DNA of 58,525 nt, filler included, from Sluysia triapertura (taxonomy: Eukaryota): NCBI GenBank assembly GCA_046118255.1. It is 4 parts of 4 records of this genome, joined end to end, with 100 filler letters (N's around TTAATTAATTAA, not from the genome) between each part and the next. Parts side by side here need not be neighbours in the genome. Positions count along the whole stretch, not along the records: positions 1 to 10,933 come from JBJNIA010191318.1; 3 more parts are not named here. One strand, given 5' to 3'. Below, piece after piece: positions 8,520 to 10,260 of this stretch. Position 1 is the stretch's first letter. Each line of letters opens with the position of its first letter. The translations under genes and the position numbers were made by a program. The notes beneath the pieces were generated by a model. That model was not told where the DNA came from, ran no database searches, and worked only from the letters and a program-made list of their open reading frames with translations.

Positions 8520-10260
8520 TGTGGTGGCCAACCTTTAGCTAAAATTCAAAACAATTATTCATTGTAATATCATACTAACTGACATTTTATATTTTACTTT
8601 CTCAGATTTATCAAAATCTTTTCACATTTCAAAACAGTTAAATTCAAAACCTTATAACATCAAAATTATACTCCCTTCAAGTCAATAATGTACATTATAA
8701 ATTTCATTCAAAACATTTTAAACTCATAATTTCACAACATTAGAATCACAATTTGCATCTCAAACTACCAAATATATTTCAAGTTTTAATCCAAAACATT
8801 TCAAGTTCACAATCCTTCAACACTCAATCTTGTATATCATCGAAAAACATTAACATCACATTTCAAAATCAATTTAAAACATTTTAAGCAAAATGATATT
8901 TCTTTAACACCTTTTTATATGCAATTCGTATTCATTTCCTTTAATATCTTCAACCTACTTGTTACCTTCTGTCGCAAGTCAACATTATCTTAATACAATG
9001 GAAAAATAACCATTTATTTTAATAGCAGAATATGAAAATTTCATCTAATAAAAGTATTTAAATTAAAAGAATTTTAAGATTTTAAAGAAAAAAGAGATAA
9101 GTAAAGTTTATGCATTTCATTTTTGTTTTTATTTTATATTATTATTATTATTTCATTTATTTATTTTATTATAATTATCATTATTTTATCGTATTTGTTA
9201 TTATTAAAATTGGTTGTATTATCATTGCCAGTATAATACATAATACGTAATTATTATTTTTATTATTATTCTCATCACCAGTCGACAGTTTAAAACATTT
9301 CAACATACCTTATGAACTGTCGACTGATGACAGTTACTTAGCGCAATAGTCTGTTGTGTAGTGCATCGGTTCACACAACAAATTAACCAATTCTTTAAAA
9401 TTGATTGGAAGTCCAGTCAATGTTATTTTAATATCCCGACGTGATTGTTGTTATTGGACGCTCAATGATGATTGATTAATAAAAGACAATTTTTTAGTAA
9501 CTAATTCACAATTATTTACTCAATAGTAAAATTTATTTGACAATTTTCTACGCAATTTTAAAAAACCAATTTTACGCAATTTTGAAAACCAATTTTTACA
9601 CATTGTTTTAAAAGTCCTACTAAATTAACTTGTTTTGATACTTCAATTAATTATATTTCACTGAATTTATATACTATGGAATACCAGAGACGACTTTCGT
9701 ATACTCCGAATCTAAACAAATATCACATCCCAATGGTGATAAAGATGCATTGAAATGGGATGAAATTAAAGTAAAGGAAATGGAACAAGTAAGCCAAGAA
9801 ATGTTAAATCGCTTAGAAGGTCAGCCAAATGAACCCAATAATTTAGTCAAAGCTAATAGTGATCCTAACAACTCATACGATTTAAATAACAAGCATTTCG
9901 TATAATTTTTTAGTGTCTGAAGATAATGAAATAAAATCTTCAAATTTTCATTAACTGATTCATATCCAAAATCTAAAATGTTATTTTATCAGTCTTCTAT
10001 AACGAATGTATTCTCTAGACCATATTCTGCTCCATATAAATGCGAATTTCTAACTCAAATACAAATAATTTATTTCTTAGTTTTTAAGATTCGTCTTCAA
10101 TGCTGAAAGTATATTGTGATGAACAGTCATCATCAATTATGTCTTGTTCTACTGATTCATTTAATGACAAACCATGGGGTTGTCATCAGGTTGCATACTG
10201 ATGGGAATTCCAGATTTAAATAGTATTATTTGTCATCGATCCTTGCTAAATGTGCAATAA
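8520..10260 (+). mobile_element. Internally deleted Ty3/Gypsy derivative (copy C)
   Basis: Starts TGTGGTGGCCAACC. The leader 8540-8895 closely matches 31880-32220. ATT-rich tract, hairpins 9275-9330 and ~9402-9468, a short gag-like frame ~9677-9920, RT-start-like RPYSAPY (~10017) and integrase-like HGVVIRLHTDGNSRF (10173-10217). Confidence 0.65.

Follow-up and report, generated by a model that had tools for sequence, protein, structure and literature searches.

Covarying hairpin arms inside the long terminal repeat of a CsRn1-like Ty3/Gypsy element in the flatworm Sluysia triapertura

Introduction

The window considered here is the whole stretch of DNA that was analysed, 58,525 nucleotides (filler included) made up of four stretches of the AT-rich genome of the flatworm Sluysia triapertura (GCA_046118255.1). 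It carries dispersed copies of a repeat in which a sequence-only reading had noted two base-pair swaps between the hairpins of two copies, named C and D, with both partners changed each time. The folds were compared there with animal pre-miRNAs and with retroviral packaging or dimerisation stems. The locus thus raises the question of what kind of element bears these hairpins, and of whether the paired changes reflect selection on an RNA stem or some other source of symmetry. Copies are lettered within the window, and loci elsewhere in the genome carry L numbers.

Results

Copies of the repeat in the window

Copy C (8520..10220, plus strand) represents the repeat from its left end. Its likeness to other copies ends near 10220, and neither a right end nor a CCCH finger was found up to the contig end. 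Hairpin 1 of C (9275..9333) has arms at 9275-9290 and 9315-9330; the right arm is itself palindromic (9315-9335), and the left arm is without the outer bases present in the nearest copies. What had been called hairpin 2 of C (9401..9468) consists of two decayed, self-palindromic CCAAT-box pairs, 49 bp apart. It had been described as more decayed than hairpin 1; its folding z-score is -1.9. A broken, coding-like cargo, common to L008, follows at 9640..10220 (plus strand). Copy D (31866..33400, plus strand; 3' limit approximate) also runs from the left end, and no right end was found up to the contig end. Its hairpin 1 (32576..32643) has 20-bp arms with one mismatch and a 28-nt loop, and its hairpin 2 (32754..32825) is formed by CCAAT pairs.

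Copy A (1..2300, plus strand) belongs to another lineage and is truncated by the contig start. Its hairpin 1 (694..754) has perfect 14-bp arms (ACCACTATCAATGG / CCATTGATAGTGGT), the form that the C/D arms take in that lineage, while hairpin 2 (795..856) has outer CCAAT boxes and inner halves that read CCAAC / GTTG on both arms. Further along lie a primase fragment (1159-1473) and, in an ORF at 1998-2297, a degenerate CCCH-like motif. Copy B (6500..8422, minus strand; 3' limit approximate) contains a single hairpin-1 arm (7762-7778) and an Unkempt-type CCCH ORF (6927-7238). B and C are arranged head-to-head, with 97 bp between them (8422/8520), and a second such pair was seen in L043 (6149/6166, 16 bp apart), a hint of insertion preference near the ends of other copies. 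A circular form as the source of the head-to-head junction was rejected (0 exact matches within 30 bp).

Several other features were observed in the window. An intronless G-protein beta gene of flatworm type lies at 16169-17281 (minus strand), with 370 amino acids open; its best named relatives are all flatworms. A tRNA-cored repeat is present in two copies (22670-22774 and 22895-23015; Rfam tRNA, 29 bits at 22927-22999), and a 97-bp inverted repeat occupies 22245-22490. A fragment at 23642-24091 matches a Monjiviricetes fusion glycoprotein (Pfam E 1.8e-8) and probably derives from an endogenous virus or from env; on either side of it are inverted repeats (23542-23617 and 24232-24356; 61-bp arms, 98%).

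The repeat is a Ty3/Gypsy LTR

TGT...ACA ends, target duplications, an integrase and purine tract upstream, and a primer site and gag-pol downstream identify the repeat as an LTR of 2-3.5 kb belonging to a CsRn1-like Ty3/Gypsy element. The retroelement context proposed in the sequence-only reading is therefore correct, the hairpins lying inside the LTR of such an element. The LTR start is sharp: a 14-mer at the left end has 2,862 exact copies in the genome, versus 0 for the reversed control. From the left end the LTR presents two inverted repeats (0.4-1.3 kb in), variable coding fragments, a CCCH finger and the ACA right end. Among 28 elements with left end and finger present, 5-bp target duplications were exact in three and matched at four of five positions in three; the other 22 showed no clean duplication (none, or chance matches). 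At 17 of 24 loci, all picked for a G-run ahead of the left end, one common upstream sequence ending in integrase and a G-rich polypurine tract abuts the left end. These loci include L045/L160, which have a C/D-type hairpin 1.

Pfam domains in the order PR-RT-RNaseH-IN correspond to the Gypsy order. On a single contig, L269 carries the left end, both hairpins, the primer site, gag, PR and RT in that order, and L272 repeats the order with no primer site detected. In L263 and L269 the primer site continues into gag. The hairpins sit 1-2 kb upstream of the primer site (about 1.8 kb in L269). The primer site itself is a 13-nt match to CCA-ended tRNA 3' halves of the same genome; the matching tRNA has a long variable arm, and we take it to be tRNA-Leu. 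No full tRNA gene was called by ARAGORN or Rfam at six loci. The tRNA 3' end has 42 genomic matches; four of the six that were read (L252-L257) end in CCA, none has a recognisable 5' half, and they resemble reverse-transcribed primer fragments. In L052, L061, L063 and L125-L127 the LTR passes the primer site and about 20 further bases before a second end, CCACA or ACAACA, is reached, as though the primer site had been taken up into the LTR end.

First-look searches gave 179 gag-start candidates in the genome. These short contigs showed no intact element flanked by two matching LTRs, and the LTR copies are probably mostly solo. L276 was considered as a full two-LTR element and rejected, its two left ends matching over 23 bp only. 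A ubiquitin-like stretch lies in frame directly before Gag in L276 (1494-1997, minus strand; Pfam E 0.002), following a leader of 1.5-2.4 kb. A DNA transposon with long terminal inverted repeats was considered because the ends in C7658 face inward, and was rejected, each of these ends having its own right end and 5-bp duplication. Helitrons and Helentrons produce no target duplication and have a Rep-helicase partner; the 5-bp duplications and the gag-pol partner rule them out here.

Coding cargo within the LTR

The coding fragments found in LTRs include Ras, kinase, Ski and C1 domains and primase. Downstream of the cargo lies an Unkempt-type CCCH finger, with 4,006 first-look candidates, of which 150 were scored. 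In L171, which has the purine tract ahead of its LTR, a C1-domain stretch of 233 amino acids runs without a break. The host gene aligns to it as separate pieces (90-93%), and on one contig two of these lie 10.6 kb from each other. This cargo, the only one tested, is therefore spliced, intron-free mRNA. Host-gene cargo very probably sits within the LTR itself. In L066, L072, L077 and L080, DYKDDD-like low-complexity repeats fill the cargo slot, in frame with the CCCH finger. A comparison of the CCCH module with longer proteins gave five candidates, none of which scored, and this is weak evidence.

The swaps between C and D

The four 16-mers quoted for the two stems are each unique in the window (9275 and 9315 in C, 32579 and 32625 in D), and the letters are as had been claimed: both stems are paired at 15 of 16 positions and differ on both sides at two pairs. 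With pairs numbered along the full 17-nt arm from its first base, C has C-G at pair 8 and T-A at pair 11, where D has T-A and C-G, respectively; the lone mismatch falls at pair 7 in C and at pair 10 in D. Both stems fold better than 200 of 200 shuffles (z-scores -5.7 for C and -7.6 for D), and no inverted repeat of comparable quality occurred in 131,196 shuffled bases. It had been suggested that the paired changes could be explained away if the arms were not homologous between the copies. They are homologous: the arms hold the same place in the repeat, and the 5' parts of the two copies align at 71% over 396 bp.

The weight of the two swaps was judged among related copies. A search pattern unconstrained at the five central pairs matched 134 genomic sites, of which 49 were analysed together with D (50 copies). 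C-G at pair 11 was found only in D. The mismatch C.A occupies this pair in 10 of the 50 copies, including five of the six other rows of D's clade in a tree of the flanks (75 rows, the short L208 being dropped). The pair-11 swap is thus one private change in D on an inherited mismatch. T-A at pair 8 occurs in eight of the 50 copies, five of them in D's clade, and so reflects one or a few events; this swap is a subfamily trait. Thirty copies were found with C, and 26 were used (three had no left arm and one was a duplicate). Their departures from paired positions are all one-sided (C.A 21, G.T 19, other 22), as expected for dead copies.

Covariation across LTR lineages

An inverted repeat scoring at least 16 was detected upstream of hairpin 2 in 34 of 48 LTRs; none appeared in 240 shuffles or in 86 windows from other LTRs. 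Eighteen of the 48 LTRs had been found with hairpin 1 itself; among the other 30, 20 carry the upstream inverted repeat, one of them a microsatellite. This motif-free scan revealed that other lineages carry different hairpin-1 arms that still pair, copy A being one example. Arm types mostly track the tree of LTR 5' ends, with two exceptions in 26 rows.

Pairs were counted after 11 rows without a clear hairpin 1 had been dropped (and L044 as well, for hairpin 1 only), a selection that favours pairing; with it, hairpin 1 is 87% paired over 36 rows, with two-sided change in 8 of 12 pairs, and hairpin 2 is 86% paired over 37 rows, with two-sided change in 9 of 19. Covariation exceeds the controls for both hairpins: 0.435 versus 0.269 in shuffles and at most 0.172 in slid controls for hairpin 1, and 0.238 versus 0.138 and at most 0.086 for hairpin 2. 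The tally of two-sided pairs is no better than shuffles give (193 of 500 for hairpin 1, 47 of 500 for hairpin 2). The rows are related, so the two-sided cells overcount, and perhaps ten events are represented. The compensatory character assigned to the C/D swaps is borne out to the extent that covariation is real and far stronger across LTR lineages; the C/D pair taken alone is weak evidence.

Each arm is closer to its own partner than to the corresponding arm of other copies (0.86 versus 0.66-0.72 for hairpin 1; 0.82 versus 0.73-0.74 for hairpin 2). Arms are also better conserved than loops, at 0.90 versus 0.59 in C/D-type copies, where the figure is biased by how the copies were found, and at 0.75 versus 0.64 in other copies. 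Columns 18/60 of hairpin 2 covary perfectly (20 C-G, 17 U-A, none unpaired). A central C.A mismatch is common to 18 of 36 rows across two lineages, beside adjacent pairs changed on both sides; a 2-nt indel, a transversion and adjacent two-base changes are likewise present on both arms. Non-canonical cells on the sense strand are more often C.A than G.U (29 versus 17 in hairpin 1, 29 versus 18 in hairpin 2), and there is therefore no wobble preference for a sense RNA. The outer ATTGG/CCAAT of hairpin 2 is retained in both lineages, and hairpin 1 retains TGACA-type half-sites. The stems stop at the arm ends, and the loops measure 21-36 nt. The spacing of the inner half-sites is 24 bp in one lineage and 34-36 bp in the second, a difference of about one helical turn that we take as a hint only; helical phasing fails for C (30), L205 (31) and L054 (21), and for the outer half-sites.

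Discussion

What the hairpins may do

The covariation described here cannot separate selection on RNA from mirror-image DNA sites or from template switching between the arms. We favour, at a probability of roughly one half, the interpretation that the hairpins are paired promoter sites whose symmetry is aided by arm-to-arm copying. The grounds for it are the outer CCAAT boxes retained in hairpin 2, the TGACA-type half-sites retained in hairpin 1, the better conservation of arms than of loops, the large loops between stems that end with the arms, and the excess of C.A over G.U on the sense strand. The hairpin region would then be U3. NF-Y would bind hairpin 2, another factor would bind the TGACA-type half-sites of hairpin 1, and transcription would start downstream of hairpin 2 and read through the cargo and the finger. 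The need for both sites to suit one factor would maintain the symmetry, and short template switches between the arms, of the kind described in PMC8794818, may carry changes across and add to it. The inner halves of hairpin 2 argue against this interpretation: where they are no longer CCAAT they still covary perfectly, and CCAAT binding alone needs no such pairing.

That last observation is among the points in favour of RNA stems in the element's own transcript (the 3' LTR copy or a long leader), selected for pairing and serving, for example, in 3'-end formation, export or binding by the LTR-encoded CCCH finger. The two-sided changes, the covariation above shuffles and slid controls, and the indel and transversion matched on both arms agree with such stems. 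The persistence of the central mismatch beside two-sided pairs also fits selection on structure, as copying of a whole arm would erase it. Since C.A exceeds G.U on the sense strand, the loops are large and unpaired, and the count of two-sided pairs lies within shuffles while related rows inflate the events, we regard the stems as less likely than promoter sites, but as the main rival to them. The matched indel and adjacent two-base changes would suit symmetry without function, in which template switching between the arms of an old inverted duplication, during reverse transcription or replication, keeps them complementary. A switching mechanism of this kind has been described for RNA genes, although the cases counted in PMC8794818 have at most 8 bp between source and target, versus loops of 21-36 nt here; with the arms better conserved than the loops, and position and spacing kept across lineages, this explanation appears unlikely. 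An antisense RNA from the LTR would turn the sense-strand C.A into G.U, and in 60 of 76 C/D-type copies the minus strand gives the better fold. This count rests largely on one inherited mismatch, however, lineage-shared states are divided (six C.A, four G.U), and the sense GC skew of -0.48 over the first 600 bp of the LTR would probably favour C.A by itself, all of which makes the antisense RNA improbable. More far-reaching is the notion of the LTR as a gene-capturing expression cassette, with a promoter, a spliced host piece and an Unkempt-type finger in each of thousands of solo LTRs, in which the hairpins would be RNA switches bound by the LTR-encoded finger in the manner of Tat and TAR; as a whole it is doubtful, if not quite so improbable as an antisense RNA.

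The functions first proposed for the folds fit badly. Pre-miRNAs have a stem of about 33-35 bp and a modest loop. The stems here comprise some 17-20 bp, do not extend past the arms, and enclose loops of 28-35 nt in C/D-type copies; Rfam has no match at the hairpins. Two hairpins in a probable U3 region, with folds of 56-72 nt, do recall the Pol III pri-miRNA dumbbell of foamy-virus U3, as described in PMC6950176. The hairpin pair spans about 130-270 nt versus 111-128 nt in that dumbbell, and compared with it the stems are shorter, the loops larger, the spacing wider and more variable, and the arms contain CCAAT boxes (PMC6950176). On the strand that folds better, moreover, 54 of 76 copies have TTTT inside the hairpin, and we consider a pre-miRNA cassette highly improbable. 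Packaging and dimerisation stems of retroviruses lie downstream of the primer site, and the present hairpins lie inside the LTR, 1-2 kb upstream of it. This position, together with the short stems, the 21-36 nt loops and the CCAAT boxes, makes a promoter module likelier than either a pre-miRNA or a packaging stem. A hammerhead ribozyme, suggested by CTGATGA in the right arm of C, was also rejected: no core GAAA partner was seen by eye, Rfam found nothing at the site, and D and other lineages are without the motif.

Relation to known elements

The homologue list for RT named no clade, and the assignment as CsRn1-like is set by motif and layout. As the CsRn1 clade (CsRn1, PwRn1, AgCR) is characterised in PMC2582038, the element shares with it the PR-RT-RH-IN order, the TGT start, a flatworm host and, in six of seven distinct hits, the CHCC Gag motif CX2HX9CX3C. 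It differs from the members compared in PMC2582038 in LTR length (2-3.5 kb versus 146-383 bp), in target duplication (5 bp versus 4 bp), in a primer site that is not tRNA-Trp, in cargo and a CCCH finger within the LTR, and in the ubiquitin-like stretch ahead of Gag, a weak Pfam match (E 0.002). Hence the element appears to work like CsRn1 but departs from the clade in its primer and duplication.

Burro of Dugesiidae, a planarian element, and plant Ogre are similar in being Gypsy elements with long LTRs (1.9-6.5 kb in Ogre) or extra host-like domains and thousands of copies, according to PMC6431247. Burro, compared here by its description in that paper only, combines a 25-kb interior with env and a giant polyprotein bearing CCHC knuckles, whereas the present element has an interior of about 6-7 kb, a CHCC Gag, no env seen, and its extra domains in the LTR. 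In the passages retrieved by a literature search that included PMC6431247 and PMC12801592, no such LTR is described; related LTRs may be described in Repbase or in the planarian genome paper of 2018 and its supplements, which lay outside its scope.

The closest parallel for the cargo is found in LTR-mediated retrocopies of animals (Tan et al., 2016, PMC5131818), in which pieces of spliced host mRNA are joined to an LTR element, likely by template switching. Host mRNA pieces have likely entered the present LTR in the same way during reverse transcription, and cargo-bearing LTRs would then spread as solo LTRs following recombination. The retrocopies described in PMC5131818 replace part of the internal ORFs between two LTRs; here the cargo is inside the LTR and persists in solo LTRs.

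Implications

With these hairpins, RNA pairing, symmetric DNA sites and template switching can be cleanly tested against one another as the source of covariation. Animal LTR elements are already described as capturing genes in their interior. With capture inside the LTR, each solo LTR would drop a promoter and a chimeric ORF into the genome, and given 2,862 exact copies of the left end and 4,006 first-look candidates for the finger, this would amount to a large-scale route of exon shuffling in this flatworm.
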